Positions 2,932 through 51,036 of a stretch of DNA of 64,000 nucleotides are shown piece by piece. The notes under the pieces were generated by a model, which saw nothing but the letters and a program-made list of their open reading frames with translations, was not told the origin of the DNA and ran no database searches. Position numbers and translations under genes: made by a program. Positions within the stretch are counted from its first letter, which is position 1; every line of letters begins with the position of its first letter. Source of the DNA: a phage; sequence record PZ386957.1; one strand, 5' to 3'.

Positions 2932-4983
2932 TTACATTTTAAATTTATCTGGCATTGCGTCTACAGATACCAGATCAGCAATAAGCTGGCGTAGAGTTGC
3001 TTTGTCTGCTTTCTTGCGTTCTGTCTTAGCTTCGGTAATAAAGCTGGAGAAAGACAGGTCAGAAGCAGGTTTAACAACACCTTCACGGATGAATGCATCA
3101 CCGTCCGCGATCATCTCGCCAGATTCTTGTAATGCTGCCAGTTCATTTTTGGTCATAATATGTGCCTCAATGTAATAAGTTTCTTGTGAATCCGTCGATG
3201 CCGTAGCACGAGTTACCGTATCAAAGGATAACACAACACCGCGAGGAAGTAAAATCTCGCATTCTTTGTAAGCAAATGCTTTGTTACCTACTGGCAATAC
3301 AGGGATGTTTTCCGCGCCAGCAATGGAGAAAGCAACATTAGCGCCACCTTCACCGCGAGATCCAGCCATAGAATCAACACCAGCAACGGCACTAGCCACG
3401 TTTGCATTCCAGCCACCAAAGATATTAGGTGCAAGGGATGTGCTCACATAGTTTTTAAAGTAAAACGCTTTTTGCTTACGTGCAGTTTCCCACATTTGCG
3501 ACCGGAAGTCCATACCACGATACAGAATAGTACCCGGATCAAGTTTAACTCCATAGTTAGCGAAGGCATTATCCAGTGCATCACACATCTTGACCAATTC
3601 TTCTGGATCTGCTACACCTTCAAACTCTTCCAGTTTTCGATCTGTCAGGAAGTTGTTCATGTTAATGTATGCTGCATCGGCGTATTCGCTTAATACAAAA
3701 CCTTCCGCACCTGGTAGGTCAAGATCAATATCTGCCATCATTTCACCCATGTTGCTAGCAATTGCTTCAAACATACCGGAAGCAACATTACGCAGGGCAT
3801 CGGTTTTAATCTGGGTGATATGACTACGCAGCATTTCAGCTTTTATGTCTGCTGGCATAGCCGGATCTACTCGGTCCATTGCAAGGGCAGTGATCTTGTT
3901 TTCGAATACTTCCTCGCTCATGATTTCTTTTAAGCGTTTAATTGATGCCGCGATAACTTCCGCAGACAACGGATCATATTGGTCCTGAACTTTTACCAGT
4001 TCACTTACTGCGTATTTTGCATCGGCTTCGCTTTCAAAGATAGTACGCATAAAGCCATAGCGAGTGATAATATCACTTGTCCAGTCATTCAAAGAACGGG
4101 CGGTTGAACGTTCTAAGGCTTGACGATCGATCAGAGTATTAAACTGTTTCTTCGGTTCCGCTTCGGTAATGTCTTCTTCCGGTTTAAGATTAATTTTTTC
4201 TGGATGATTGACATAATCACCGTTATATGTCGCTTGAGTTTTCAGCATTTCTTCTTTAGTCAAACGAGATTTAGCCGCTACGCGTTGTTCCGCTTCCGCG
4301 TTTCGTTCTTCTTCTGCTGCAAGGCTAGCCGCATATGCTTCATCTTTAGTAAGAGATTCGCCAGTAGCTTTAGATACCCAGCGATCACCTAAATCACTTT
4401 CTACTTTAGTGAACAAGGACTCATCCAGTTTAATCCCTTTAATCTTATCAATCGCCATCCCTCGACGCTTGACAACAACTAAAGCGATCTTTTTGCTGGT
4501 CATTACTTCCTGCTGGAATACTTCAAACTTCGGAGTACGACGCACTAAACGCTCTATAACTCGTTTAACCAGTTCGGTCTTGCCTTTCATACGGGAAACA
4601 TTAAAACGGAACATAACAGCGTCTAATTGAGCTTTACGGGCGGTTTCCATCACCACATCAAAAGCACTTGCCATAACAGCAATCGGGTTATCGCCTAGAC
4701 CATTTTTAAGCTGTACAATTCGACCGCTTTTATTCATCTCACACAGGACCACATGCGCGGTTTTATCACCCACGCGAATAATTTTAGGTGTTTTGTTGGT
4801 GAAGTTGCAAAGACGAACAATCACATCTTTATCGCGTGTCTGTACTGCAAAAAGCTGTTTTGGGTTCTGCTTCGGCTTTAGGCACTGTACAGGGGCAATG
4901 CTACCAAAGTTTTCTTCCTCTTCTGTTAACAGCCATTTCTCAAAAGATTCAATCATTAGATCGTCGATTTCTAAGTTAAACAT
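2932..4983 (-). CDS. alt: ADP-ribosyltransferase Alt (packaged, modifies host RNA polymerase)
   Basis: 683 aa (T4 Alt 682 aa); C-terminal ART motifs YRGMDF / YVSTSL / KECEILLP; located after gene 54 as in T4. Confidence 0.85.
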   Translation of the reverse strand: MFNLEIDDLMIESFEKWLLTEEEENFGSIAPVQCLKPKQNPKQLFAVQTRDKDVIVRLCNFTNKTPKIIRVGDKTAHVVLCEMNKSGRIVQLKNGLGDNPIAVMASAFDVVMETARKAQLDAVMFRFNVSRMKGKTELVKRVIERLVRRTPKFEVFQQEVMTSKKIALVVVKRRGMAIDKIKGIKLDESLFTKVESDLGDRWVSKATGESLTKDEAYAASLAAEEERNAEAEQRVAAKSRLTKEEMLKTQATYNGDYVNHPEKINLKPEEDITEAEPKKQFNTLIDRQALERSTARSLNDWTSDIITRYGFMRTIFESEADAKYAVSELVKVQDQYDPLSAEVIAASIKRLKEIMSEEVFENKITALAMDRVDPAMPADIKAEMLRSHITQIKTDALRNVASGMFEAIASNMGEMMADIDLDLPGAEGFVLSEYADAAYINMNNFLTDRKLEEFEGVADPEELVKMCDALDNAFANYGVKLDPGTILYRGMDFRSQMWETARKQKAFYFKNYVSTSLAPNIFGGWNANVASAVAGVDSMAGSRGEGGANVAFSIAGAENIPVLPVGNKAFAYKECEILLPRGVVLSFDTVTRATASTDSQETYYIEAHIMTKNELAALQESGEMIADGDAFIREGVVKPASDLSFSSFITEAKTERKKADKATLRQLIADLVSVDAMPDKFKM

Positions 4984-8797: not shown

Positions 8798-9085
8798 TTA
8801 AAACAGCCCTTCCTGTACACCGTAGTAGAGTTCGTCACTGATAATTTCATTAATGCGACGGTGTGCATATTCCTGATTTGCGAAGTTGTCAGCAAGTTCT
8901 ACTTTAGTTTCGCCGTCATGAGTCCATTTAGTGATAACTTTACCATCTGCAAATTTGAAGTTGAACTCTTTAGCTACTGCATCGCGTACCAGACGTGCAA
9001 ACTTGTTGTTACGGATTGCATTATCGGTTTCGTGTGCAGCGTGAGCAAATTTGTTAACTTTCAGCGTGATAGTGATGTATGCCAT
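8798..9085 (-). CDS. hypothetical early protein
   Basis: 95 aa ORF with SD, preceded by promoter cassette. Confidence 0.45.
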   Translation of the reverse strand: MAYITITLKVNKFAHAAHETDNAIRNNKFARLVRDAVAKEFNFKFADGKVITKWTHDGETKVELADNFANQEYAHRRINEIISDELYYGVQEGLF

Positions 9086-9166
9086 AATTTGATTCTCCTA
9101 GTTAGAAAGTGTATCTCGTTTCGATGGGTGTATTATGCTATACACCCGATCTTATGTCAACACTTT

Positions 9167-9460
9167 TTATAAAATAATTTTTTGATATTTTTCTATGATG
9201 TTTGTGTAGGTCACGTCAACCGCTAGCACCGTTGCTTCGAATCCACCGTTTAACCAATGGCTATGATCATGGTCGTGAAAGAAACCTAGACCAGTACGAA
9301 GACCTTCTTTATATTCTGCGCGTACATTCAGTTTGTCGTCGATAAACAGATAAAACCATGAATTTTTACTAGGATTGATGATACAACCTTTCAGATTAGG
9401 GAGAATATCACGACTAAGAATAAACTTATCACCTACTTTGAACATAATATTAGTCCTCAC
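9167..9460 (-). CDS. H-x-H-W family small protein (paralog 2)
   Basis: ...HDHDHSHWL...VLAVDVT... Confidence 0.5.
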   Translation of the reverse strand: MRTNIMFKVGDKFILSRDILPNLKGCIINPSKNSWFYLFIDDKLNVRAEYKEGLRTGLGFFHDHDHSHWLNGGFEATVLAVDVTYTNIIEKYQKIIL

Positions 9461-29393: not shown

Positions 29394-30830
29394 TTACTTT
29401 GTCAACTCTTTTTCAAAAGATTTTACGATATACATGATGGTGCTCAATTCGGACGGTGCTACTGTCTCTGTGTAGCCATCCGGCATATCTTCTTTTGAGA
29501 TATAGGAAGTTTTACCTTTCATCGCTTCCTTGATTTTGTTCTCTAAGTCTAAGATCTTTTGTCCGTCTTGTAAAGTCAATTCATAAAAGATCTCGTGGTC
29601 GAACTTAGAAACGCGAGATTGTTGTCTCATCCTTTTGACCGCATCTTTATTTGTAATTCCAAATTTAACACCAACAAAAGAATTTTTGTATATTAATTTT
29701 TGTACATATAAACACCCACTTATAACAGTAGAATAACCAGATTTTGCGCAATTTGGACACCTGTGCCCATGAGAGACAAACTTATTATATGTGCTTTGAT
29801 ATAAGTGGTTATTTGGACACATGAATTCGATTTTCGTCTTCATCACCCCAATATATTTTCCACCAACAAACCTCAAAAATTTATGTTCTTTTGCAACAGA
29901 TTTTATTTCATCAACTACTGCTTCTTCTGTTTTTAAAGTCACCCCTTGACAAATCGCACATTTACTTCCTTTGATTAAAGAAGAAAATGACACAATATAA
30001 TCATGACCTTTTTCACATCTCATATTAAGTTTTGTTGTTACACCTTTATATTTTCCGCCAACAAAACCCAAAAAAGTATAAGACCCTTTTTTCTTGATGA
30101 TTTCTTTTATCGCTTCATTTTCGTTTCGACGAATTCCACCATAGCAAAACTCGCAGCGACATTTTTTGATGACGTTGGATACTTTTCTGTTATAGATGTG
30201 ACCTTCTTTACACATTAAAGATACTAATAAATCGGATGTAACCTTATCTTTATTGTTTTCTACACACAATACTGTATCATTCGTCGAAGTTGCCAATCGA
30301 TTTAATAATTCTTTTTCTTGTATTCTTTTTTCCTTACCGATTTTATTGTAGAAGCATTTAGCACATTTACGTCCACTTATATATGAAATATATGACGTTT
30401 CATATATATGTCCTCGGTCACACATAACACGAAGTTTCGTTTTTGTAGATCCTATATATTTTCCACCAACAAATTCAATAAATTTATAGTCGGTTCTTTT
30501 ATCTATGTTATTTCTAGCTTTATGTTCACTAATAGGATTCCTGTTTGAATTCGCGCATCGCAAGCATCTTTTTCCTTGAGATAAAGATGTTATTGTCGTT
30601 TCGTATAAGTGTCCATTTGAGCACGTTAATGAAATTTTAGTTTTACTACCCTTCCAATCATCAATAAACCCGTTAAACGTATAATTGTTATCTTCGCACA
30701 TTTTAATGATCATTTGTTCATATTCTTTCGGTGATTTAGCCAGCCCATGCAGCTTTTTTACTTGTGCGTCTTTATAAAAATAAGTTTTCATCATTTTATC
30801 CTCCGTTGTTTCGATGTGTGTATTATACAT
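29394..30830 (-). CDS. five tandem Cys4 zinc-ribbon repeats plus C-terminal T5orf172/GIY-YIG-like domain protein
   Basis: Five repeats of ~FxGGKYxGxxTK...CxxGHxY...GxxCxxC, then GCLYVQKL...VGVKFGITNKDAVKR...DGYTETV. Confidence 0.5.
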   Translation of the reverse strand: MYNTHIETTEDKMMKTYFYKDAQVKKLHGLAKSPKEYEQMIIKMCEDNNYTFNGFIDDWKGSKTKISLTCSNGHLYETTITSLSQGKRCLRCANSNRNPISEHKARNNIDKRTDYKFIEFVGGKYIGSTKTKLRVMCDRGHIYETSYISYISGRKCAKCFYNKIGKEKRIQEKELLNRLATSTNDTVLCVENNKDKVTSDLLVSLMCKEGHIYNRKVSNVIKKCRCEFCYGGIRRNENEAIKEIIKKKGSYTFLGFVGGKYKGVTTKLNMRCEKGHDYIVSFSSLIKGSKCAICQGVTLKTEEAVVDEIKSVAKEHKFLRFVGGKYIGVMKTKIEFMCPNNHLYQSTYNKFVSHGHRCPNCAKSGYSTVISGCLYVQKLIYKNSFVGVKFGITNKDAVKRMRQQSRVSKFDHEIFYELTLQDGQKILDLENKIKEAMKGKTSYISKEDMPDGYTETVAPSELSTIMYIVKSFEKELTK

Positions 30831-30881
30831 TACCGTATCAGCATGTCAACACTTTTTTATAAATTTTTAGGCAATAAAAAA

Positions 30882-34925: not shown

Positions 34926-34933
34926 TATAAATA
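34926..34933 (+). promoter_or_regulatory. T4-type late promoter (TATAAATA) for gene 34
   Basis: tttTATAAATAat about 30 nt upstream of the gp34 start. Confidence 0.6.
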
Positions 34934-34961: not shown

Positions 34962-37900
34962 ATGGCAGATTTACTAAGTCAACATTTTAAGGCCACATTT
35001 GGCTTTGATGCTGGTAATGAAAAGGTCGTCAATGTAGCATTGGCTGATAAGAACACTCTCACCGATGCCGTTAACGTTGAATTTTTCAATTACCATAACG
35101 GTATTACGCAGTATGACACAACTCGCGGTTATGATCAATACGGTACTGCAATTTATCAAAACCGTCCTTACTATGCAAAGGAAAACATCGCGAAGCCAGC
35201 GGGAGAATTTGATCCGACTAAATGGCAAGCACTGCGTACTGATCCGCGTTGGGATTACATTGCAGCGACTTCCGGCGATACTCCCCTAAAGTCTGGTGAT
35301 TATATCGCTGCGGATTGCCAATTTGCAAACTTAACATTCTCCATGCCTACTAAGCCAGCCGAAGGCGATACTATAACAGTAAAAGATATCGGTGGCAAGT
35401 GCGGTGTAAACGAATTGTCGTTCCTCGCATCTGGTCATGAGTTCTATCATAATGGCACAGTATACAATAGAAAATGGTATTGCACAACTCCTTATTCGAT
35501 GATGTATTTCATCTTTGCTCGTGGACGTTGGCATGTATACCAGACTGGAACAGAGCCGCGCGGGGTATATGCACAGCCAGCTATTGATCCAATCCAGATG
35601 CAAAACGGAGATCAGGTATTCCGTCGCAGTTCATTAGGTAATATTGTATTGAAATTACCTAAGTTTGCAAATAACGGTGATATCATCAATACCACGGACC
35701 TGGATGGATTGACCGCAACAAATCACGTTACCATCAAGACACACGAAGGAGCGCCGGACCATTCTATTGGTGCAGTCGGTGTAAAAGAGATTGTAGGCAA
35801 ACGTAGTGGTCACGGTGTATTCATCTTTGATATTACTGAAAACTTATGGCGTGTTTGGGATGGTGATCAGTCTGTACGCTTAACGCCTATCGCATCGGAT
35901 ACCCGCTTGCTGCCTAACACGTATGTCGCTGTATTCGGTGATCGCAATGTCACTTTAACATTGCCTACTAACGTAGAGATCGGGGATCGTATTCAGGTCG
36001 CATTACAATACATGCACGGTACACAAACTTGCAAGATTGTAACGTCTGGGGCAGATACCAAAATTTTAATGCAGAAAAACATGCTGCAATTCCCTAAACG
36101 CAGCGAATATCCGTTTAATGGATCTGATACGTGGAAGGAAGTAACAGAGTTATCTTTCAGTGCTGCAACTGATTATGTTCCGTATCTGGAGTTCTCTTAT
36201 TCAGAAGGTGATGACGGTAAAAAACACTGGTTAGTAGCACATGCTCATCCTATCGTAGAACGGGTAGATCCGACTCGTAAAGATCGTGTGGGTGTAATTG
36301 CGCTGGCTACTCAAGACGAAACCAATAAAAACCATGAGCAGAATCCGAGCGACGAAGTAGCTGTTACCCCTCGTGTGTTGGCTAATAAAACCGCAACCGA
36401 AACACGACGCGGTATTGCAAGAATTGCTACGCAAGCAGAAACGCATCAAAATACTGGTTCTAACTTCCTTGATGATGTTATCGTTACACCTAAAAAATTA
36501 AATGATTGTGTTGCTACTGAATCACGTCGTGGTGTGCTGGAAATTGCAACGCAAGCAGAGACTAACGAAGGTTTAGACGATACCCGCGCTATTACTCCTA
36601 AGAAATTAGAAGAACGTCGCGCGAGTGAAACGTTGGCAGGGATTGCGGAAATTATTACGGCTGGCGGTAACGCTGCGGCAGTTCGTGGTCAAGCTGGTTC
36701 CGGTATCTACGATATCAATGACCATGCTAAAATCGTTACTCCCCATAACCTGAATGAAGTTAAAGCGACAGAAACATCTCGCGGTGTAGGTTATCTGGCA
36801 ACTGACGCAGAAGTACAGGGAGCGACCGAAGCAACACCGCAAGATGCATTGTTAATCACTACCCGTACTTTGACTAAGCGTATTGCAACAGAAACGCGCA
36901 CGGGGATCGCGGAAATCGCTACTCAAGCAGAAACCAATCAGGGGCAGCTTGATACCCATATTGTTACGCCGTTAAAACTCAATAACCGTCGTGCAACCGA
37001 AACGCTACATGGTCTAGCAGAAATCGCAACTCAGGTTGAATTTGACACAGGTCGAGATGATGCTCGCATTTCTACCCCATTGAAGATTAAAACCTTCTTT
37101 GAGAATGCACAGCGTTTGAAAGTAGATCCTACTCAGGGGCTTAACCTTACTGGCGATTTGTGGCAAGGTATTACTATTCGCGGTCTGGATGCTGACGAAG
37201 CAACTAAAGGCGTTGCTAAAGTCGCTACTGTCCAGTTAACCGACGCTGGTACTGATGATACCACAATCATTACGCCGAAGAAATTACAAGGTAAAAAAGC
37301 CACTGAAGTTAAAGAAGGTATTATTCGTGTTGGTACTCAAGCCGAAACCGTAGCAGGTATACTGGATGATGTGGCAGTATCGCCGAAGAACTTCAAATAT
37401 GTTGTTCAGGTTGATGACACATGGAAAGCAACGGAAGCGCGTCGCGGTTTTCTGAAAGTATCTACAAAAGAAAACTGTTTTGTTGGTAATGACCTTGCTG
37501 GTTCCACTCAAGCAATTGATCAATATCTGCATGATGGAATCGCAGTTACCCCGCGTGGTTTAAACTATGCACTGGCTAACTTCTTACCTAAAATGGCAAC
37601 CGCTCAGAATAGTTTGAAATTAGGCAACGTAGAAGCCGCTAAATGGGCGCGTAGAGACGTTGATCAGACTATCGAGGCCAATTACACGTTTAAGAAAAAT
37701 ATCAACGTGGAGGGTGATTTAGAGTGCTTAAAATCAGGTACGTTTGAAACACTGTATGTAACCAAAAATTCAACTGACGAGGCGAGCACCGGAAATCTGG
37801 TATTAGGTATCCGTGGTCAAAATGGTCATACCGGAATTGCATTGCATGGCACAACCGGAGATATTGAGAACTCATGGGCTATGCTCGTAGGCGGTACTGG

Positions 37901-38693
37901 TACTGGACAAATTACCAGCCCAACTGCAATTGCTTTCGGTGCGATTAGTGATATAGGGGCAATTGACCATTATGCATTCGCGGTAGAACGTAATGGTGAT
38001 GCGGCAGCATATCAGGACTTTATCGCAGGTCGTAACCTGTATGCTAAACAAGGTGGATTGTACATCGTCGATCACGAAAACGCAGCCATGACTTACTCAG
38101 GCGGTATTCTACATATTGGTCACGGTAAAGTCAATATTAAAGCTGGTTATCAGGAATTGACTACCGAAATCGCCGGACAAAAATATCAAATTGTCCATAA
38201 AGGAAACGCCGACGATGTTCTTGATCGTCAATTCGTCAAGAATGCTGGTGATACTATGGTCGGTAAACTGATTATGGACAATGCCGCAATTGTTTCTGTT
38301 AAGCATGAAGCTAGCGCAGCGACCGCCCCAGCCGTAGGTAATATCGGTTTCTGGAATATGCGCGTTACTACTCCATCAATCCGTGATTCTTATCCTGAAA
38401 AGAAAAACGGTACTTTGATGCAATGGGGTACTGATGCCGATGGTCTTACTCAGATGTGGTCGCCTGATGGTACACACAAACATTATATCCGTTCCGGTAC
38501 TGGTGGTCAATGGTCTGCGTGGGGTGAAATCTACACCAAACAGAACAAGCCTACCGCGCAGGAAATCGGTGCAATGGTTGCTGATGGCGGTTTAACCAAC
38601 TCTATGACCGTTCGAGATTGGGTTAAAATTGGTAACGTGAAAATCGTTGCAAATAACCTTACCCGGACAGTTGATTTTATTTGGGAAGATTAA
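34962..38693 (+). CDS. 34: long tail fibre proximal subunit gp34
   Basis: 1243 aa (T4 gp34 1289 aa); multiple ~35-aa ATETRRGIAEIATQAET...TPKKL repeats; late promoter upstream. Confidence 0.85.
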   Translation: MADLLSQHFKATFGFDAGNEKVVNVALADKNTLTDAVNVEFFNYHNGITQYDTTRGYDQYGTAIYQNRPYYAKENIAKPAGEFDPTKWQALRTDPRWDYIAATSGDTPLKSGDYIAADCQFANLTFSMPTKPAEGDTITVKDIGGKCGVNELSFLASGHEFYHNGTVYNRKWYCTTPYSMMYFIFARGRWHVYQTGTEPRGVYAQPAIDPIQMQNGDQVFRRSSLGNIVLKLPKFANNGDIINTTDLDGLTATNHVTIKTHEGAPDHSIGAVGVKEIVGKRSGHGVFIFDITENLWRVWDGDQSVRLTPIASDTRLLPNTYVAVFGDRNVTLTLPTNVEIGDRIQVALQYMHGTQTCKIVTSGADTKILMQKNMLQFPKRSEYPFNGSDTWKEVTELSFSAATDYVPYLEFSYSEGDDGKKHWLVAHAHPIVERVDPTRKDRVGVIALATQDETNKNHEQNPSDEVAVTPRVLANKTATETRRGIARIATQAETHQNTGSNFLDDVIVTPKKLNDCVATESRRGVLEIATQAETNEGLDDTRAITPKKLEERRASETLAGIAEIITAGGNAAAVRGQAGSGIYDINDHAKIVTPHNLNEVKATETSRGVGYLATDAEVQGATEATPQDALLITTRTLTKRIATETRTGIAEIATQAETNQGQLDTHIVTPLKLNNRRATETLHGLAEIATQVEFDTGRDDARISTPLKIKTFFENAQRLKVDPTQGLNLTGDLWQGITIRGLDADEATKGVAKVATVQLTDAGTDDTTIITPKKLQGKKATEVKEGIIRVGTQAETVAGILDDVAVSPKNFKYVVQVDDTWKATEARRGFLKVSTKENCFVGNDLAGSTQAIDQYLHDGIAVTPRGLNYALANFLPKMATAQNSLKLGNVEAAKWARRDVDQTIEANYTFKKNINVEGDLECLKSGTFETLYVTKNSTDEASTGNLVLGIRGQNGHTGIALHGTTGDIENSWAMLVGGTGTGQITSPTAIAFGAISDIGAIDHYAFAVERNGDAAAYQDFIAGRNLYAKQGGLYIVDHENAAMTYSGGILHIGHGKVNIKAGYQELTTEIAGQKYQIVHKGNADDVLDRQFVKNAGDTMVGKLIMDNAAIVSVKHEASAATAPAVGNIGFWNMRVTTPSIRDSYPEKKNGTLMQWGTDADGLTQMWSPDGTHKHYIRSGTGGQWSAWGEIYTKQNKPTAQEIGAMVADGGLTNSMTVRDWVKIGNVKIVANNLTRTVDFIWED
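36350..37480 (+). repeat. tandem in-frame coding repeats within gp34
   Basis: At least nine copies of an A-T-E-T-x-x-G-[IV]-A-E-I-A-T-Q-A-E-T...T-P-K-K-L unit. Confidence 0.6.
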
Positions 38694-38725: not shown

Positions 38726-39865
38726 ATGTCAGAAGAAATCGAATTGCGCAATACAGGAATTAAATTTGCACATTTTGATCAAGATTCCGTAACATTTAAC
38801 AGCATATCAGAAAACAACTCTGTGATGTATAAGCTGGAAGTGCGCGGATCTAATAGTGATTCGACTAAACCAGCAAGGATCAGATTCAATGGCGTAGAGA
38901 TTACTGGCACTGGCTATCAAGTCGGTTTGAATTTTAAAGTGTTGACTCCAACCGGACAACTCCACGAAGAAAAGATATTCTATGGACGTGGTGCAGCCTT
39001 AGCAATGCGCGATTATCTCAATACCCTGAAAGGGGATTATATCATCGCAATGGCCTCGCATGGTAAATTGACACCTGATCCAGTAAATGATGAAATATTC
39101 AATCGATTAGGATCAGTATCATATCCAAATCATATTCTATTACAACAAATGCCGCAAGTTAGTTATGCAGCAATCTATTCTACTAAAATGGGTAAAGTCG
39201 TTTGTGAAGGTATGCAAGCATCACACGGAGAAGGGCAAGATTCATCTATACAAATAGAGAAAGTCTATGATACAATAGATGATTTGGCAATTACCGGAAT
39301 CCCTCAACGATTCTTAGATTATCCAGTGGAATATGTTAGCGAAGACGCAGAACACTTTGAATTAGTACAATGGCCTAAAAACGAAATATCCGCGCCTATG
39401 ACAGACTTTAATATCAAGGCAGGAGATAAGCTATCTATTTCATTTGAGCTATTCAGAGATGATGCAGCGGCTTCTGCTGGCGTGACCGCAAGGTTCTTCC
39501 ACAATTATTTTCTGGAAGGAACTTATAAAACTGGTGTACGTTACAATGCAACAAAACGCGATCAGTGGGAAAGGTTTGATGCGGTGTATACTGTACCGGA
39601 AGGAGTTGATAGTGTAGTAACTGGCTGTATCCGGTATCCAACTAACTCCAGTGAAGGGATTGTTAAGGTGCGCAATATTCTGATTACCCAGATTAGCGGA
39701 GTAGTCAAAACCGATGGTCCTACTTCCTTTGGTGTTAACGGTGTTAGAACTACAAGCATTCAAGATAACGGTGACTTCACTAATCCGGTTATGAGTCTGC
39801 TTAAATTACCGCGAGACAACAAACATCTTACTTCCAATAACTTTAAAGAATTTGATGTTGATTAA
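38726..39865 (+). CDS. 35: long tail fibre hinge connector gp35
   Basis: 379 aa (T4 gp35 372 aa); positional. Confidence 0.65.
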   Translation: MSEEIELRNTGIKFAHFDQDSVTFNSISENNSVMYKLEVRGSNSDSTKPARIRFNGVEITGTGYQVGLNFKVLTPTGQLHEEKIFYGRGAALAMRDYLNTLKGDYIIAMASHGKLTPDPVNDEIFNRLGSVSYPNHILLQQMPQVSYAAIYSTKMGKVVCEGMQASHGEGQDSSIQIEKVYDTIDDLAITGIPQRFLDYPVEYVSEDAEHFELVQWPKNEISAPMTDFNIKAGDKLSISFELFRDDAAASAGVTARFFHNYFLEGTYKTGVRYNATKRDQWERFDAVYTVPEGVDSVVTGCIRYPTNSSEGIVKVRNILITQISGVVKTDGPTSFGVNGVRTTSIQDNGDFTNPVMSLLKLPRDNKHLTSNNFKEFDVD

Positions 39866-40030: not shown

Positions 40031-40038
40031 TATAAATA
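40031..40038 (+). promoter_or_regulatory. T4-type late promoter (TATAAATA) for gene 36
   Basis: tttTATAAATActcag about 33 nt upstream of the ATG. Confidence 0.6.
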
Positions 40039-40070: not shown

Positions 40071-41561
40071 ATGGCAGATTTGAAACATGGATCTACAGTT
40101 GGTGGATCACCGATTTGGACTCAAGGTAACTTGACAATCCAACCAGCGGGAGATCAACTATTCTATAAAGGTCATAAAATATACACTGCTTCCGACCGAC
40201 CTTCTGCTGGTGATGTTGATTCGGTTAGTGCTACCGAAGGTGGTACATTTCAAAGACCAGTTCATTTCAATGAAGGATTGAGTGTAGGTAGCGCATCGGC
40301 AGGTGAGACAAAAAAGAACGGATTATTCCCCGGTCAAAGCGATGCTGCTAATTTTGACGGTGTAAGTTGGGGTTTGCATTCATGGAAGTCAATTGGCTTT
40401 GTAAATGCCCGTGATGGCGTTATAATGGCATATATTGACACAACCACAGGTGATTTTAATACTAAAGGTTCCATTAATGGTGTAAACGTCAAAGACTCAG
40501 GTCAACGCGTCTATAGTCCGGTTAATAAGCCGACAAATAATGATTTGGATTTAGTTTCTCGTCGCGGTGATACTCTCACCGGAACTTATAATCTAAACAC
40601 TGTTACCGTTAAATTGTCTGTTGATTCTAAATTGGTGGCGAGAGATCGTGATTTAATTAACTTTGATGCAAGCAAGATTTATTATGGGAATACCGTAGAT
40701 TCTTTGGTATTCCGTAGTAAAGCAGAGCCATTAATTTATGTTAATGGTAAAGAAGGTAAATTCTATCACACCAATAATAAACCGACTAAGGCCGACGTTG
40801 GTCTAGGTAATGTCACCAATGATGCACAGGTTAAGCGTGCCGGTGATATCATGGAAGGTAATTTGCAAGCGCCTAGAATGTTGGCTACAAATGATCCGGC
40901 TGGTCCTAATGAACTAGTTAGATTAAGCTATTTTGAGAAAAAATCAATGGTAGCCAATCCAACGATCATCGGTACTGCTGATTGGAATACACTTATTGAC
41001 CGTGGTATCTATCGTGTAGAGAATGCTGGTTCTGGTACTAATATACCCTCAGATAGTTATTACTATGGGGTGTTAATGATCTATCGACCAGAAGATGCAA
41101 CGGGAACTCGTCGAATTGTTCAAGTTTATTACCCAGAGTCGATTAATCATCCGGTTTGTTGGCGTTCTTGTTCTGGTACTTCGTGGACTGCATGGAACTA
41201 TGTAGATCACCGTAAATTGGCTGATGCTCGCTATGTTAATGTTACTGGCGATAAGATGTCTGGTGCTTTATCTGTTCCTGCTGGGAATGGTGTTCGTACT
41301 ATAAGCACTAACTATAACGGTGATAACTATTACGTTGGTCTTAATAGCTTAGACGGCGTTGCTATGATCGAGCGGGTGAGCGACCTTAAGGCAAAAGAGC
41401 GTTTAGGTATTACTCATGATTCTAAGATTGTATTTGTTCGTTCTAAGAACAACACACAAACACAAGAAACATTAGAATTATATCATGAAGGCCATAAACC
41501 TACTCCTGCCGAAGTTGGCGCTGTTCCGCTTAACGCAGTAATTGATTTCGGTACTTTCTAA
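40071..41561 (+). CDS. 36: long tail fibre distal connector gp36 (enlarged)
   Basis: 496 aa; MADL N-terminus shared with 34 and 37; positional. Confidence 0.55.
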   Translation: MADLKHGSTVGGSPIWTQGNLTIQPAGDQLFYKGHKIYTASDRPSAGDVDSVSATEGGTFQRPVHFNEGLSVGSASAGETKKNGLFPGQSDAANFDGVSWGLHSWKSIGFVNARDGVIMAYIDTTTGDFNTKGSINGVNVKDSGQRVYSPVNKPTNNDLDLVSRRGDTLTGTYNLNTVTVKLSVDSKLVARDRDLINFDASKIYYGNTVDSLVFRSKAEPLIYVNGKEGKFYHTNNKPTKADVGLGNVTNDAQVKRAGDIMEGNLQAPRMLATNDPAGPNELVRLSYFEKKSMVANPTIIGTADWNTLIDRGIYRVENAGSGTNIPSDSYYYGVLMIYRPEDATGTRRIVQVYYPESINHPVCWRSCSGTSWTAWNYVDHRKLADARYVNVTGDKMSGALSVPAGNGVRTISTNYNGDNYYVGLNSLDGVAMIERVSDLKAKERLGITHDSKIVFVRSKNNTQTQETLELYHEGHKPTPAEVGAVPLNAVIDFGTF

Positions 41562-41563
41562 TT

Positions 41564-41590
41564 TTAGCGGGGATTCTTTCCCCGCTTTTT
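41564..41590 (+). terminator. rho-independent terminator after gene 36
   Basis: GCGGGGAttctttCCCCGC + ttttt. Confidence 0.65.
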
Positions 41591-41632: not shown

Positions 41633-44389
41633 ATGGCAGATTTAAGCAGAATCCAATTTAAACGCACTAGCACAGCCGGACGTAAACCTGATGCGAATAT
41701 TCTAACTCCGGGTGAACTTGCTATTAACCTAGCGGATCGAGAACTATATACAAAAGATGATGACAATAATGTAATTACTTTGGGACACTTTCGCGGTGAA
41801 TTGCCAACTGATGCAAATTTAGATAATTATGGACCTACTGGTAAGTTTACTGGTATTTGGTCTAAAGCAACTTCAACCAACGCTCAGCCAACACATAAAT
41901 TCCCAGAAGATAATGCTGTGGGTGTATTGGAAGTATTTGCCGCTGGACAATTTGCCGGAACTCAGCGTTATACTGTTCGGTCTGGTAACGTCTATATTCG
42001 TTCCTTATCTGCTAAATGGAATGGTGTAGATGGTCCGTGGGGTGCGTGGAGGAATATTCAAACTGGTACACGACCACTATCAACCACATTGGACTTGAAT
42101 ACTTTAGGTGATGCATCTCATTTTGGTTTATGGAGGAATAGTTCAAGTTCTATTGCATCATTTTCTCGAAATTACCCAGAAGAAGGCGGTCTCGCGCAAG
42201 GTCTTTTAGAAATTTATGAAGGCGGTAACTATTCGCGCACACAGCGTTATACTACACGTATGGGTGTTGTGTATGTTCGTTGTCTTGCTGGTGCATGGGA
42301 TTCAGAAGCACCGAATTGGGGAGCGTGGCAACAAGTTGGTAACGTGACACCAGCGACTTTCTATGACGGAGACCTTAATAATTTTCGTTCTCCTGGTTTA
42401 TATAATATTTTAGGCACTGATGCCGTTATTAACTGTCCTACAGGGGAAGGGCTACCAGCCGTTATTGTTGGTTTATTGGAAGTTAAACAACGTGCTTCTG
42501 GTGGTGCAATTTTCCAAAAATTCACTACTGCCGGAACGGGAACTACTACCCGTGGACGTATTTTCGAACGTGCGATGACCAATAATATTTGGGGTGCATG
42601 GAACGAAGTATATACGTCTTATTCTCTGCCAATTACTTTGGGTATGGGTGGTGTTAAAACTCAGTTAACCGCGCTTGACTGGCAAACTTTCGATTTTGTT
42701 CCTGGTGCTATGTATAGCGTACCGTTGAACAAGATGACCAATATACCAGCAAATATGGATTGGGGAACTATTGATGGAAACCTAGTAATGCTGGCAGTAG
42801 GTCCGAGCGAGCATACCGGAACAGGTCGCACCGTTCAGGTTTGGCGTGGTACTGTAAGTCAAGCGAACTACCGTTATTTTGTCGTTCGTGTCGCCGGTAA
42901 TCCAGGAAACAGGACTAACACTTGTCGCCGTGTTGTTGTGGAAGATGGTCGCCATACATGGACAGCACAACAAGATTTTAATGGTGCTGTTAACTTCGGT
43001 AGCTCAACAACGTTTAAATCAACTACGACATTTAATACAGAAGTTAAATTCCGCTCATCTAACGCATTTCGTATGTATGGTGGTAACTTCGGTGCATTCA
43101 TGCGCAATGACGGTGAAAGTCTTTATATTCTTTCCACCAACGAAAATGATCAAGATGGAAACTTTAACACCAATAGACCTTTCCGATATCAATTGAAAAC
43201 TGGCGATGTTACTCTTGGTGGAACTAGCGGTGCTAACGCTTTAGTATTAAAAGGTGGTTCTCTTGCTGCTACCTTTGGTGGTGACATTAACTTGAGTAAA
43301 GGATATTTGACGTTTGAGGCTGGGCGATTATATTCTCGCGATTACTTCCGGTTTAACCATTGGGGTGATAGTAATAATGCGCGTGATAACATTATTCAGT
43401 TAGAAGATAGTCAAGGAGCACATTTTTCTACTGAACGTCAAATGTCAAACGGTGCAATTAAAACTAAATTCTTTGGACAAGTTGAGTCGAATGGACGGTT
43501 AACAATCAATGCACCAGGTGATGCTATTGTATTATCAACAACTGCTGGTAATTCTTTGCATATTCGCGGTGACGTAGGCGGGAATAATAACTGGTATATT
43601 GGTAAGGGTGGTGCTGATAATTCGCTAGCATTTTATAGCTATGCTACTCAGGCGGCAGTACATATCACAAACAACGGTGAGATTGCGTTAAACCCGCAAA
43701 ATACCGCAGTGGTTAACGTTAACCGCGACCGTGTGCATATCAATGGAACAGGTTGGGTTGCCCGACATTCCGGCGCATGGGTTGGCCAATGGAGAGAAGA
43801 AGCACCATTATTCGTTGATCACGGTAACGTTGGAGAGGATAGCTATTATCCGATTTTGAAAGGAAAAAGCAACATCACGAATCAAGGATATACTACTGCC
43901 GTAGATTTTGGTATACGTCGTGTTCCTAGCAAATGGGGTCAAGCAATTATTCGAGTTGCTTCTGCGGAGGCTTCACCTGATGCTGGTCATCCTCAAGCTG
44001 TATTTGAATTTCATCATGACGGATTATTTTATTCGCCAGGTAACGGTAATTTTAACGATGTGTATATTCGTTCTGATTCTCGTCTTAAGATCAATAAAGA
44101 AGAATTGGAAGATGGTGCAGTTGAAAAGGTATGTAGACTGAAAGTTTATACCTACGATAAAGTTAAGTCTATTAAAGATCGTAGTGTTATTAAACGTGAA
44201 GTTGGTGTTCTTGCTCAAGATCTTGAAAAAGAATTGCCCGAAGCTGTATCTAAAGTTGAAGTTGATGGATCTGATGTTCTGACAATTTCTAACTCTGCTG
44301 TGAATGCTCTTTTAATTAAGGCTATTCAGGAAATGAGCGAAGAATTGAAAGCCGTTAAAGCTGAACTAGCGGAACTTAAAAAGAATTAA
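41633..44389 (+). CDS. 37: long tail fibre distal subunit gp37 with C-terminal intramolecular chaperone / autoprotease domain
   Basis: 918 aa; C-terminus ...IRSDSRLKINKEEL...LAQDLEKELPEAV... resembles S74-type self-cleaving chaperone domains; no gene 38 follows. Confidence 0.7.
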   Translation: MADLSRIQFKRTSTAGRKPDANILTPGELAINLADRELYTKDDDNNVITLGHFRGELPTDANLDNYGPTGKFTGIWSKATSTNAQPTHKFPEDNAVGVLEVFAAGQFAGTQRYTVRSGNVYIRSLSAKWNGVDGPWGAWRNIQTGTRPLSTTLDLNTLGDASHFGLWRNSSSSIASFSRNYPEEGGLAQGLLEIYEGGNYSRTQRYTTRMGVVYVRCLAGAWDSEAPNWGAWQQVGNVTPATFYDGDLNNFRSPGLYNILGTDAVINCPTGEGLPAVIVGLLEVKQRASGGAIFQKFTTAGTGTTTRGRIFERAMTNNIWGAWNEVYTSYSLPITLGMGGVKTQLTALDWQTFDFVPGAMYSVPLNKMTNIPANMDWGTIDGNLVMLAVGPSEHTGTGRTVQVWRGTVSQANYRYFVVRVAGNPGNRTNTCRRVVVEDGRHTWTAQQDFNGAVNFGSSTTFKSTTTFNTEVKFRSSNAFRMYGGNFGAFMRNDGESLYILSTNENDQDGNFNTNRPFRYQLKTGDVTLGGTSGANALVLKGGSLAATFGGDINLSKGYLTFEAGRLYSRDYFRFNHWGDSNNARDNIIQLEDSQGAHFSTERQMSNGAIKTKFFGQVESNGRLTINAPGDAIVLSTTAGNSLHIRGDVGGNNNWYIGKGGADNSLAFYSYATQAAVHITNNGEIALNPQNTAVVNVNRDRVHINGTGWVARHSGAWVGQWREEAPLFVDHGNVGEDSYYPILKGKSNITNQGYTTAVDFGIRRVPSKWGQAIIRVASAEASPDAGHPQAVFEFHHDGLFYSPGNGNFNDVYIRSDSRLKINKEELEDGAVEKVCRLKVYTYDKVKSIKDRSVIKREVGVLAQDLEKELPEAVSKVEVDGSDVLTISNSAVNALLIKAIQEMSEELKAVKAELAELKKN

Positions 44390-44431
44390 GGAAAACTCCC
44401 AGGGAAGGGAAACTACTAAGGAGAAACGGCT

Positions 44432-44671
44432 ATGGTCTATAATATCGTCATTGGTGCCTTGTCTAGTTTCGGAATGAAACTATTATCAAAGTTAATTAGT
44501 GAAAAGATGCTCACTAAAATTTTCTTCTATTGCGCTCGTCGTCTTGCGGCATATACCAATACGCCAATTGATGATCGTTTCGTGGAAGAACTTTATAAGG
44601 AGTTTAATAAAGATCAGTCAGAAGATAGCAACGAGCAGAATAAAACGGGTGACAGTCAAGTACCTAAATAA
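44432..44671 (+). CDS. hypothetical small protein
   Basis: 79 aa ORF between 37 and t. Confidence 0.35.
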   Translation: MVYNIVIGALSSFGMKLLSKLISEKMLTKIFFYCARRLAAYTNTPIDDRFVEELYKEFNKDQSEDSNEQNKTGDSQVPK

Positions 44672-44705
44672 TGGTACACTGTCATAGTTATTTTTAGGGC
44701 ATTAT

Positions 44706-45362
44706 ATGCAAGTTTCTGAAAAAGAGAAAGACTTTGCTATCTCAAATGTCCTGCGCGCTATTTTCACAACTAAAAGCACGGAGTTGCTCGTACTTCGTGT
44801 TTTTGCTGCCGTTGTGTTGTCTATATTAGCATTTGTCGTTTATAGCAAAAACGAGTTGTTTGCGCTTTATAAAGAAACTCGTTATGAGACTTATGCTCAC
44901 GTTCTCCAGGTAGAAAAAGACCGCAATTTTGATAATGCAGCACAGGAGCAGTTACAGATAGTTCATGTGTCGGCAGATGCCGATTTTTCTGCTGTTTTTA
45001 GCTTTCGTCCAAAAAACCTAAACTATTTCGTTGATTTGGTGGCATATGAAGGAAAGCTACCGCATACAATCGATGAAAAGAATTTAGGCGGATTCCCTAT
45101 CAATAAAACGAGTGAAGAATATCGTAGGCATCTTTTAGGTAAATCCTATTTTACCGATAAAGATTTCCAGTATATTCCGTCGAGGGAGAAAAAATTAGAG
45201 AATATCGATATAGGATTCATGTATTCTTGTCCTATATTCAATCTCGATAATGTCTATTCTGGTAGTATCGCCATTGCATGGAAGAATAAACCAGATATTG
45301 ACATTGAGAATTTAGATACTCTTTGTAGTCAATCTGCCAGAATCCTCGGAAGGATTAGATAA
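44706..45362 (+). CDS. t: holin T
   Basis: 218 aa, same length as T4 T; single N-proximal TMD; strings recalled from T4 T (EQLQIVHVS, FSAVFSFRPKNLNYFVDL, C-terminal ARILGR). Confidence 0.85.
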   Translation: MQVSEKEKDFAISNVLRAIFTTKSTELLVLRVFAAVVLSILAFVVYSKNELFALYKETRYETYAHVLQVEKDRNFDNAAQEQLQIVHVSADADFSAVFSFRPKNLNYFVDLVAYEGKLPHTIDEKNLGGFPINKTSEEYRRHLLGKSYFTDKDFQYIPSREKKLENIDIGFMYSCPIFNLDNVYSGSIAIAWKNKPDIDIENLDTLCSQSARILGRIR

Positions 45363-45368
45363 ATTAAA

Positions 45369-45395
45369 GGGGGAGCCTTTCGGCCTCCCCTTCTT
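45369..45395 (+). terminator. bidirectional rho-independent terminator after t
   Basis: GGGGGAGCCtttcGGCCTCCCC hairpin flanked by A-run and T-run. Confidence 0.7.
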
Positions 45396-45397
45396 TT

Positions 45398-45646
45398 TTA
45401 GTGACGCATAGAAGCGCCTGAATCGCATTTTGACGCAGTATGATGAAAACATGTGGCGTACCAGTCATCGGCTTGTTTGTCCTCGTCAGAGAACGCATAA
45501 TTTCGTTGTATGCCGTTTTCTACTTTGACCAGTGCAATAGCTGTTTCTGGAAGATCAATCAATCGGACAAAATCACCATCTTCCCACTCTACACGAGCAA
45601 TATCATAACCCATCTCAAAATATGCAATCGCTTGTTCTAATTTCAT
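45398..45646 (-). CDS. hypothetical small protein
   Basis: 82 aa ORF. Confidence 0.35.
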   Translation of the reverse strand: MKLEQAIAYFEMGYDIARVEWEDGDFVRLIDLPETAIALVKVENGIQRNYAFSDEDKQADDWYATCFHHTASKCDSGASMRH

Positions 45647-45975
45647 TCTGGAAACTTCCCGTAAATGTTCTCTGCCAACATACGCGCATCGCTAATGATA
45701 TCTTTCATGCTATGACCGTAGTGTTCAGCCATTGAGTTGATACAATCAACAAATAAATTATAACGGCGACGGTTTAAGATTTCTTCTCTGTTATAGTTTT
45801 CATACTTGACGGTCGAGTGTGCTTTCTCGATTGCCTTAATCGCTATATTGACTTCATTAATAATGGTTTTAGCATTATATGCGCCACGACGGATCAGGAT
45901 ATTTGTCAATTCTCTTGCAATATCTTGCAATTCTTCATATTCATGTTCAAACATAATCAACCTCTCAAAATACAA
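45643..45975 (-). CDS. hypothetical protein
   Basis: 110 aa ORF. Confidence 0.4.
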   Translation of the reverse strand: MYFERLIMFEHEYEELQDIARELTNILIRRGAYNAKTIINEVNIAIKAIEKAHSTVKYENYNREEILNRRRYNLFVDCINSMAEHYGHSMKDIISDARMLAENIYGKFPE

Positions 45976-45978
45976 TCC

Positions 45979-46311
45979 TTACAGATGAAAACCTGTTACG
46001 ATCACCGCATCGATCATACCGCTAGGGATAAACGGTTCGCCCTCTTTTATTTCAACTTTGAATTGATGCCATTTTGCTAATGCTTCTTCCGGTACACCCA
46101 GCGATTCGGCGTCTGCTTTAGTTTCATCCATAATCCAACTAGGCTGCATGAGGGCATAGTTTACATAGTCCATTTCTGGGGTCATGTCATCAATGTTAAT
46201 ATATTTGCAGTTGACGCGTTTCAGAATTTCAAATTCTTTATCGTCAACCTGTACCATATACAATTCAGTAGTTTCTGGAATCAGTTCCCATACAATCAGT
46301 ACATTTTTCAT
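45979..46311 (-). CDS. hypothetical protein
   Basis: 110 aa ORF. Confidence 0.4.
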   Translation of the reverse strand: MKNVLIVWELIPETTELYMVQVDDKEFEILKRVNCKYINIDDMTPEMDYVNYALMQPSWIMDETKADAESLGVPEEALAKWHQFKVEIKEGEPFIPSGMIDAVIVTGFHL

Positions 46312-46319
46312 AGTTCACC

Positions 46320-46688
46320 TCACTTAACAAAGATTTTCTTTAATGCTTTCAGGATCGTTGCTTCCGGCGCTTCTTCCGGTGGAGGAAGCAATTCTACCAC
46401 TTCCTCTTCCAACTCGATATAGTCTACCAGATATTCTACATAAAATGCAAGTGCTTCCATGAAATTAAATGCTACATCCGATTCACCGCACGCACCAACA
46501 TGCATTGTATAAACATCGCTGCGATCAAGTTTGTGGATACTGCCTAGATAGTTTCGGTTATACCAAACTTCCCACACTTTCAGTTTTCCGGTTTTGGTTG
46601 CTGTTTTATAGTCGGTTTCGTAGTGGTGCAATTGACGTTGCAGGTCATTGATAATAACACATTTTTCGTAATTGTTTTGAATTTCCAT
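46320..46688 (-). CDS. hypothetical protein
   Basis: 122 aa ORF. Confidence 0.4.
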   Translation of the reverse strand: MEIQNNYEKCVIINDLQRQLHHYETDYKTATKTGKLKVWEVWYNRNYLGSIHKLDRSDVYTMHVGACGESDVAFNFMEALAFYVEYLVDYIELEEEVVELLPPPEEAPEATILKALKKIFVK

Positions 46689-49681: not shown

Positions 49682-51036
49682 CCCTTCAATTCTTTAAGGT
49701 CTTTCTTATACTCTTTCAAAGATGTGGTTTTCATCCAATAATCATATTCCTTATGGTGTTTTTCTGCATCTTTGACCAGTCGATCATATTCTTCTTGCGT
49801 TACGCTGTACAGTGGCATAGAAACGAGTTTATCAGCGTACTGGCGCAGTTTTTCGTGTTCCTTGATGGATTGCATTACCTCGGTCTTTTTCTTTCCCTGT
49901 AACGCGATCTCGCCCTTAATTACGCGATCAATAAATTCGGCTTTAGCCATTGCATAATTGTAGGCTTCGAGTGTCTCCGCTTGCATATGCTCAATTCGTT
50001 TATCGACATACCCTAAACGAATCTCGACAAATCGACGAATTAGGTCGCTTGCTTTCTCGAATACCTCTACTCGTCCACGTTCATTAACAACGACTATATT
50101 TTGTGCGACAAGCTGTGTCAGCTTAAAATCTTTCATGATCTGCTCATGTCGATGATCTTCGTTGTCGCTTTTGAAGTAGTCACGTTTCAGAGTAACTTCA
50201 AACCGAAAACCTTCTTTAGAGCACCGATCATTATATGAGACAATAGCGCCTTTTTCTTCCAGTACATCAAGTACAGCGACATAGCTTTCACGGTCAAACT
50301 TATAGGGAACTTCTGTTATTGTCAGCTTAGTTTTGCCGTTTAGTTCATATGTACCCTCTAGAATAACACCATCTCGGTCATCACGCGGGATAACTTTACC
50401 AGTAAATTTCGGGAATTGAACACTAGGTTCTTTATCCAGTTTTCCGGCTAGTGCTAGCTCTGTGCATTCAATAAGGCTTTCCAGTGAATGCGGTAAAATG
50501 TCAGTTTTATACCCTGTAGCAATACCACTAACACCATTAGCTAATACCATTGGCACAACTGGCAAGTAGAACGCTGGCGGAATATGTTCTAAATCTTCGT
50601 GCTTTGGTGCGCATTCCATATCTTTATAGATTTTAAAGAAGTTTTCATGCACACGAGCGAAGATATAACGTGCTGCACCTGCTTTCTGGACTAAACGCGA
50701 TCCAAAGTTCCCTTGACCGTCAAGCAGTGGAGTATTATTGCTCCACGTATTCGCCATGAGTGATCCTGCTTCTACGGCATTAGTTTCCCCGTGGTGATAA
50801 CCTAACTCAGCGACACCCGATCCAATATCTGCCATCTTACGGAATTTCTTACGGTCGCCTTTACTCTTTTGTAAAGCACATTCCATAACAAAGCGTTGCA
50901 CTGGTTTAAGTCCATCTACTAATTGAGGAATACCGCGTTCCTCTGCGGAATAGATCGCATATTCCTTAGCTTCATTATGTACAATGCTTTCAAGGCTGCG
51001 GTAAGTAACTGATTTATTCATCTTCACCTCATACAC
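49678..51036 (-). CDS. 52: DNA topoisomerase II medium subunit gp52 (GyrA-like)
   Basis: 452 aa (T4 gp52 442 aa); GyrA-like N-terminus GLKPVQRFV...; active-site region ...RYIFAR... Confidence 0.8.
   Translation of the reverse strand: MYEVKMNKSVTYRSLESIVHNEAKEYAIYSAEERGIPQLVDGLKPVQRFVMECALQKSKGDRKKFRKMADIGSGVAELGYHHGETNAVEAGSLMANTWSNNTPLLDGQGNFGSRLVQKAGAARYIFARVHENFFKIYKDMECAPKHEDLEHIPPAFYLPVVPMVLANGVSGIATGYKTDILPHSLESLIECTELALAGKLDKEPSVQFPKFTGKVIPRDDRDGVILEGTYELNGKTKLTITEVPYKFDRESYVAVLDVLEEKGAIVSYNDRCSKEGFRFEVTLKRDYFKSDNEDHRHEQIMKDFKLTQLVAQNIVVVNERGRVEVFEKASDLIRRFVEIRLGYVDKRIEHMQAETLEAYNYAMAKAEFIDRVIKGEIALQGKKKTEVMQSIKEHEKLRQYADKLVSMPLYSVTQEEYDRLVKDAEKHHKEYDYWMKTTSLKEYKKDLKELKG

Follow-up and report, generated by a model that had tools for sequence, protein, structure and literature searches.

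In phages of the S16/T2/T6 class, gp37, the distal subunit of the long tail fibre, ends in an intramolecular chaperone. In S16, the last 113 residues, which form this chaperone, autocleave at DLNVS^SDRRIKK (^ marks the cleaved bond), a site that has been aligned to DVYIR^SDGRLKI of the fPS phages (PMC7917993). Cleavage uncovers the docking surface for the adhesin gp38 (PMC7917993, PMC9569957); DVYIR can be read from the former report as the docking strand, and three conserved Trp residues of the N-terminal helices of gp38 enter pockets at the gp37 end (PMC6851490). In relatives of RB49, gene 38 is displaced from gene 37, as described in three reports, among them that of Trojet et al. (PMC3157838, PMC12032242, bioRxiv 10.64898/2026.04.02.716166). 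For example, a displaced gene 38 is present in FL37 and FL38 (PMC12032242), a distance of ~55 kb downstream of gp37 has been given (bioRxiv 10.64898/2026.04.02.716166), and host-range mutations of RB49 map to the displaced gp38 (PMC9569957). Here we analyse 64 kb of the phage record PZ386957.1 (this whole stretch is called the window, and positions count from its first letter), in which a gp37 of 918 amino acids (aa) with a T6-type tip and chaperone is not followed by gene 38. We propose that it belongs to a normal fibre of the S16/T2/T6 class whose gp38 is encoded outside the window.

The C-terminus of gp37 is an S74-type intramolecular chaperone, as the original prediction had held for the last ~105 residues; the profile, the invariant residues and the modelled fold agree on this. 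The domain (aa 814-918, 44072..44386) follows the DVYIR strand and reads ...DVYIR SDSRLKINKEELEDGAVEKV...LAQDLEKELPEAV...ELKAVKAELAELKKN. Its first part, aa 814-872, matches positions 1-57 of the 58 in the Peptidase_S74 profile PF13884 (E 9.2e-11) with 42.3 bits, above the gathering cutoff of 22 bits. Residues R813, S814, D815 and K819 are invariant in an alignment of gp37 with 29 homologs, and the domain starts with the spacing Ser-x4-Lys (S814-D-S-R-L-K819), which aligns to SDRRIK of S16. The catalytic residues of endoNF are reportedly Ser911 and Lys916, a numbering said to go back to MEROPS S74 and Schulz 2010. An AlphaFold2 model of aa 794-918 (predicted local distance difference test, pLDDT, 84) has a small alpha/beta core and then a long helix at the C-terminus. 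The PDB fold that it matches best is the MyRF ICA domain 7DC3 (template-modelling score, TM, 0.74; E 3e-5), and the further top matches are GA-1 3GUD, endoNF 3GW6 and T5 pb1 4UW8, all of them intramolecular chaperone domains, so that the likeness to K1F endosialidase and T5 pb1 that had been noted before is borne out. By sequence, the solved structures matched included the S16 gp37 tip construct 6F45 and the tail fibre 8JOV, with a weak match (E 0.68) to 7DC3. The needle of T4 gp37 (His-x-His) has no match in this gp37. A T4-type gp37 served by a gp38 chaperone was considered and rejected, given the S74 C-terminus, the missing needle and the lack of any open reading frame (ORF) in the gene 38 slot.

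Cleavage is predicted at R813^S814, where DVYIR^SDSRLK aligns to DLNVS^SDRRIKK of S16, and would give a mature gp37 of 813 aa and a freed chaperone of 105 aa. It had been proposed that autoproteolysis defines both the length of the mature fibre and its receptor-binding tip. The part on length stands with the predicted cleavage, whereas the part on the tip is not supported, as host range in this class is set by gp38.

gp37 is a mosaic of a Krischvirus N-terminus, a T6-type body, tip and chaperone, and RB49-type last 14 residues. As a whole, it is 88% identical to gp37 of G5211 and 83% to that of Bas37 (KarlGJung, Tequatrovirus), and 37-61% identical, in patches only, to that of RB49. Residues 1-30 are 97% identical to G5211 and UPWr_E1 and 60% to Bas37. 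From aa 31 to 813, blocks of 30 aa show 63-100% identity to G5211/Bas37 versus 7-87% to RB49, and the blocks of aa 691-813 remain 63-87% identical to both G5211 and Bas37. The T2/T6 type reaches from aa 31 to ~904, including the distal tip and nearly all of the chaperone, and the RB49 type comprises aa 905-918 together with the downstream spacer. The ends make this visible: RB49 gp37 closes with ...EELKAVKAELEELKKN, and those of G5211 and Bas37 close with ...EEIKELKTPFFTKIARKISKYFKF. The crossover lies at ~44327-44350, where the two parental types are nearly identical. The spacer 3' of gp37 has the same length as that of RB49 and almost the same sequence; at this place G5211 holds an insertion of ~0.9 kb that includes gene 38. 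A simple deletion of gene 38 from a G5211-like ancestor was rejected, since the window has ~20 nucleotides (nt) of coding sequence of the RB49 type that are missing from G5211, and an RB49-like tail. As a separate observation on G5211, CCGTTAAAAAAGAATTAAGG after its gene 38 stop (L001 6617-6640) resembles a collapsed RB49-type gp37 3' end (GCCGTTAAAGCTGAA…CTTAAAAAGAATTAAGG); this short remnant is a hint that a T6-type g37-g38 cassette may have been put into an RB49-like ancestor.

No gp38 homolog was detected in the 64 kb by tblastn with gp38 of G5211, Bas37 and RB49 (best E 0.4). The gp38 adhesins that adjoin gp37 in all six close relatives with a T6-type tail are glycine-rich, and a scan of the window for glycine-rich ORFs found none. 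The statement that gene 38 is absent thus holds for the classical slot and for the window, and it does not extend to the genome, because the displaced locus lies outside the window. The further step that had been taken, from an empty slot to the lack of any gp38-type adhesin, does not follow. In G5211, Bas37/KarlGJung and the contigs L007, L008, L014 and L018, the same chaperone is followed by a gp38 adhesin gene, and RB49 has its gene 38 displaced. Since these six relatives carry both, and the docking of one on the other is published, chaperone and gp38 are partners and not alternatives. The conclusion that the phage has no adhesin, on which the original prediction turned, is therefore probably wrong. 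Among these relatives, gene 38 of G5211 (L001, MK327947, 5818-6617) has a frameshift near codon 30 that splits it into ORFs of 37 and 245 aa, and its homolog in L008 is an intact gene of 266 aa; the frameshift may come from an error in sequencing, or the gene may truly be a pseudogene.

The window belongs to a Krischvirus. It is 87-89% identical in nucleotides to RB49, G5211, ECD7, Brandy and JK32 (over 83-86% of a 20-kb query), where identity above 70% and synteny with RB49 were taken as marks of the genus, and it is collinear with RB49 from ~111 to 164 kb and across the coordinate origin to 9840. No record is closer than 87-89%, and the window therefore represents a distinct Krischvirus lineage. 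The RB49 layout (gp37, 42 nt, RB49p252 of 79 aa, t) matches that of the window. In RB49, gene 38 (RB49p079, 45367-46143) is located between dam/nrdC and rI/tk, 54.7 kb downstream of gene 37 on the circular map, and a survey of a phage collection found gene 38 at this displaced locus in 44 records. The corresponding place is expected ~35 kb past the right end of the window. Sequence resembling the surroundings of the displaced locus does occur in the window: ~100 nt at 9080-9182, between the minus-strand ORFs 8798-9085 and 9167-9460, are 84.6% identical to the intergenic RB49 sequence 46414-46509 beside the displaced gene 38 and include a near-consensus promoter, TTGACA-N17-CATAAT. The segment looks like a repeated early promoter/stem-loop (PeSL) element, a kind of element through which genes of RB49-like phages are proposed to be shuffled (PMC4122927).

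With a probability of about 0.7, we regard the fibre as a normal one of the S16/T2/T6 class, assembled with its chaperone, cleaved by itself at R813^S814 and capped by a gp38 whose gene lies beyond the window, with the displaced locus of the Krischviruses as its most probable place. The S74 chaperone (aa 814-918) would fold and register the three gp37 chains, and would then remove itself between Arg813 and Ser814 in a reaction dependent on Ser814 and Lys819, leaving the 813-residue mature gp37. The exposed DVYIR strands would not be a receptor binder; a single copy of gp38 would dock on the face that they form, and the glycine-rich tip of gp38 would bind the receptor. Gene 38 would be missing from the classical slot because RB49-like genomes normally carry it ~55 kb further downstream, in the interval from the dam/nrdC region to the rI/tk region, and it would lie there in this phage too. 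The gp37 gene itself is a recombinant whose right-hand crossover falls inside the conserved 3' part of the chaperone and would have left any T6-type gene 38 behind. That gp38 would dock on this gp37 end is suggested by comparison. The DVYIR^SD motif is common to RB49-type and T6-type gp37, the gp38 proteins of the two types are 58% identical, and their N-terminal attachment regions appear similar in our reading of two sequences.

Several points weigh against this account. RB49 gp38 has a Tyr at the third docking Trp of T6-type gp38. Furthermore, when the displaced locus was surveyed across the phage collection and gp37 was inspected in selected genomes, tip type and gene 38 position went together. 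All four of the displaced-g38 phages examined for their tip (RB49, ECD7, JK32 and Brandy, from a larger set that includes Phi1 and JSE) have the RB49-type tip. A T6-type tip with an adjacent gp38 is present in G5211, G2494, KMB43, LF73P4 and FL15. From these phages the displaced copy is gone, and just 629 base pairs of flanks remain at that locus. The displaced gene is also lost in UPWr_E1 and G2248, which have an extended gp37, a divergent chaperone, three ORFs of ~100 aa and no gp38 at either site. The window departs from the pattern, as its tip is T6-type but gp38 does not adjoin it. Its arrangement would need either a heterologous gp37-gp38 pair or a gene 38 at another site, and neither was found in any complete genome examined. 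The presence of gene 38 in this genome is thus inferred from its relatives, the displaced locus being outside the window. In IMG/VR, a large protein database and JGI metagenome scans, the only sibling of the window is a 9-kb IMG/VR contig (L006/L024) that has the same architecture with the crossover at the start of the chaperone and not at its end; it is therefore an independent recombinant. Exact protein look-ups with gp37, gp36 and t gave no match. Two candidate guides to the arrangement were dropped. JK32, with a gp37 of 922 aa and a displaced gene 38, is no analogue of the window, as its tip is RB49-type and only 39% identical. The tip residues NGNFND versus NGSFSD do not mark gp38-less versus gp38-bearing fibres, as P0002-P0004 pair NGNFND with the gp38-associated tail KISKYFKF.

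Another explanation, which we consider unlikely, is that the phage truly lacks gp38, so that the bare gp37 tip binds the receptor, or the fibres only position the phage and another protein sets the host range. The empty 64 kb would fit, as would, above all, the loss of the displaced gene in every examined Krischvirus with this gp37 body, from which the backbone of the window might lack it too. The same gp38-less junction in the independently recombined L006/L024, and a prophage-like contig (L011) whose tip and chaperone are 59% identical and which has no adjacent adhesin ORF, point the same way. However, the tip just upstream of the cleavage site is ~90% identical to tips on which gp38 docks (e.g., that of L008), gene 38 is essential in T6 (PMC3157838), and a displaced gene 38 is the norm of the genus and beyond the reach of the window. 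Phages of the UPWr_E1 type, which do without gp38, have a different, extended gp37 C-terminus and three additional ORFs, whereas the window has neither. The specific form of this explanation, in which the T6-class gp37 of the window lineage and of L006 works without gp38 and engages the receptor with its bare trimeric DVYIR tip, is improbable in our judgement. If it were true, the gp38-docking face would double as an adhesin, and gp38 would have been lost where it is considered essential.

We think it similarly improbable that the 3' junction of gp37 is an assembly chimera, in which reads of the G5211 type and the RB49 type from one sample were joined across a near-identical stretch of ~60 nt where the chaperone ends, so that no real phage would have the gp38-less T6-type gp37. 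The crossover does fall within a short stretch nearly identical in both parental types, the combination was not seen in any complete phage genome, and the sole sibling is a metagenome contig of 9 kb. But both sides of the junction show 82-89% nucleotide identity to all known Krischviruses, as would be the case in a single lineage; L006, with its different crossover point, argues for real, recurrent recombination; and neither the reading frame nor any of the invariant chaperone residues is disrupted. Recombination is very frequent in T-even phages. Finally, it is hardly credible that the 79-aa ORF encodes a new small adhesin or a fibre chaperone in the place of gp38: the ORF occupies the canonical gene 38 position, but it is 94-97% identical across three tip solutions, including phages with an adjacent gp38, does not co-vary with the tip, has a hydrophobic N-terminus, directly precedes the holin and resembles neither adhesins nor Tfa-type chaperones. 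Being conserved whatever the tip type, it was rejected as a substitute.

Much of this is already published: that gp37 bears a chaperone, where the chaperone is cleaved off, and that gene 38 is displaced in RB49-like phages. What is new is the particular mosaic gp37, in which a T6-type tip is parted from the gp38 that usually adjoins it, a finding of modest specialist value for fibre engineering. Host-range prediction in T-even-like phages depends on finding the true receptor binder, and equating "no gene 38 after gene 37" with "no adhesin" misleads in Krischviruses, where gene 38 lies ~55 kb off. If an RB49-type gp38 is used in trans, different lineages could exchange the two sides of the gp37-gp38 docking interface, a useful property for engineering fibre tips; if there is no gp38 at all, the phage would represent a new mode for the S16/T2/T6 fibre class.

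Table 1. Features of the long-tail-fibre locus in the window of PZ386957.1
Feature	Position	Strand	Evidence
gp34, upstream of gp37	34962-38693		long-tail-fibre protein by PHROG/Pfam profiles
gp35, upstream of gp37	38726-39865		long-tail-fibre protein by PHROG/Pfam profiles
gp36 of Krischvirus type (496 aa), distal hinge connector in the long tail fibre	40071..41561	+	Pfam Phage_T4_gp36 (26.2 bits); phrog_16472 over its full length
Mosaic gp37, distal subunit of the long tail fibre (918 aa and stop codon)	41633..44389	+	phrog_1699 E 2e-182
gp37 aa 1-30, N-terminus of Krischvirus type, end attached to gp36	41633..41722	+	80% identical to RB49
gp37 aa 31-813, shaft and distal tip of T2/T6 type up to the DVYIR strand, with the predicted gp38-docking end	41723..44071	+	block identities
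Predicted autocleavage site Arg813^Ser814, DVYIR^SDSRLK	44069..44074	+	alignment to S16 and fPS-phage sites
Peptidase_S74 domain (intramolecular chaperone) of 105 residues, aa 814-918	44072..44386	+	Pfam PF13884; AlphaFold2 model fold matches
RB49-type C-terminal tail LKAVKAELAELKKN, aa 905-918	44345..44386	+	comparison with RB49, G5211 and Bas37 ends
42-nt spacer with ribosome-binding site AAGGAG; canonical gene 38 position empty	44390..44431	+	comparison with RB49, G5211
79-aa ORF, hydrophobic N-terminus, homolog of RB49p252/Dc5	44432..44671	+	phrog_402, function unknown
Holin t, 218 aa	44706..45362	+	Pfam Phage_holin_T E 1.3e-61; phrog_860

The neighbouring genes are listed in Table 1; as previously noted from the sequence, holin t is the next gene after the 79-aa ORF. 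The T4-type late-promoter motif TATAAATA is present before gp34 (34926-34933) and gp36 (40031-40038), whereas gp37, the 79-aa ORF and t have no such motif in front of them. Between gp36 and gp37, a strong hairpin with a T-run occupies 41566-41586, and within gp37 the Pfam family Gp34_trimer matches aa 457-518. The 79-aa ORF is equally conserved in G5211 and UPWr_E1, irrespective of their fibre tips, and is therefore no tip-specific partner. A minus-strand ORF at 50154-50246 shows ~45% identity over 31 residues to its hydrophobic N-terminus (E 0.009) and may be a paralogous membrane segment. In the nrd/td region, an ORF of 483 aa on the minus strand (29397-30845) has several internal Cys-rich repeats (…GH.Y…S…G..C..C…) and is reminiscent of a homing endonuclease or a zinc-ribbon repeat protein.

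Related fibre ends were also observed elsewhere. Three tandem paralogous ORFs of ~100 aa take the place of gp38 in UPWr_E1 (L003 5084-5984) and in L009 (IMGVR_UViG_2548876867_000017, 3993-4899); this set follows a chaperone-bearing fibre gene in some Krischviruses and in prophage-like contigs of ~35 kb. Apart from one marginal match, the three ORFs match no Pfam or PHROG family, and they may be an uncharacterised fibre-tip module. The contigs L009-L013 and L016 (IMG/VR, 30-43 kb, isolate genomes) encode fibres of 1136-1142 aa, the last ~316 residues of which are 59-62% identical to the tip and chaperone of the window gp37; the L011 fibre has an RB49-like tail, EELKAVKAELAAIKSCK, and no adjoining adhesin ORF. 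Judging from these likenesses, the tip-plus-chaperone module has evidently been swapped between T-even-like phages and unrelated smaller phages.

Among the closest known systems is the fibre tip of the T2/T6/S16 class (fPS-65, Bas37, G5211; 6F45), with which aa 31-904 of gp37 are 83-88% identical and the DVYIR^SD motif and the chaperone are shared. In phages of this class the gp38 gene comes right after gp37 and the chaperone ends in …KTPFFTKIARKISKYFKF, whereas the window is without both. Gene order, the 42-nt spacer, the 79-aa ORF, the holin and the gp37 tail (…EELKAVKAEL.ELKKN) are the same in RB49, but aa 31-813 are not of the RB49 type. UPWr_E1 and G2248 resemble the window in gp37 up to ~aa 802 (85% identical) and themselves have gp38 at neither locus; they differ from the window in an extra domain of ~90 aa, a chaperone that is ~30% identical, and the three paralogous ORFs in the gene 38 slot. 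More distantly, K1F endosialidase 3GW6, the GA-1 neck appendage 3GUD, T5 pb1 4UW8 and MyRF 7DC3 share with gp37 the same profile, the Ser-x4-Lys dyad, and an alpha/beta core with a long C-terminal helix at the C-terminal end of a trimeric fibre, although the sequence identity to its chaperone is only 12-20%. Cleavage in endoNF and T5 yields the functional tip directly, whereas in the fibre class of gp37 the end so produced docks a separate adhesin.

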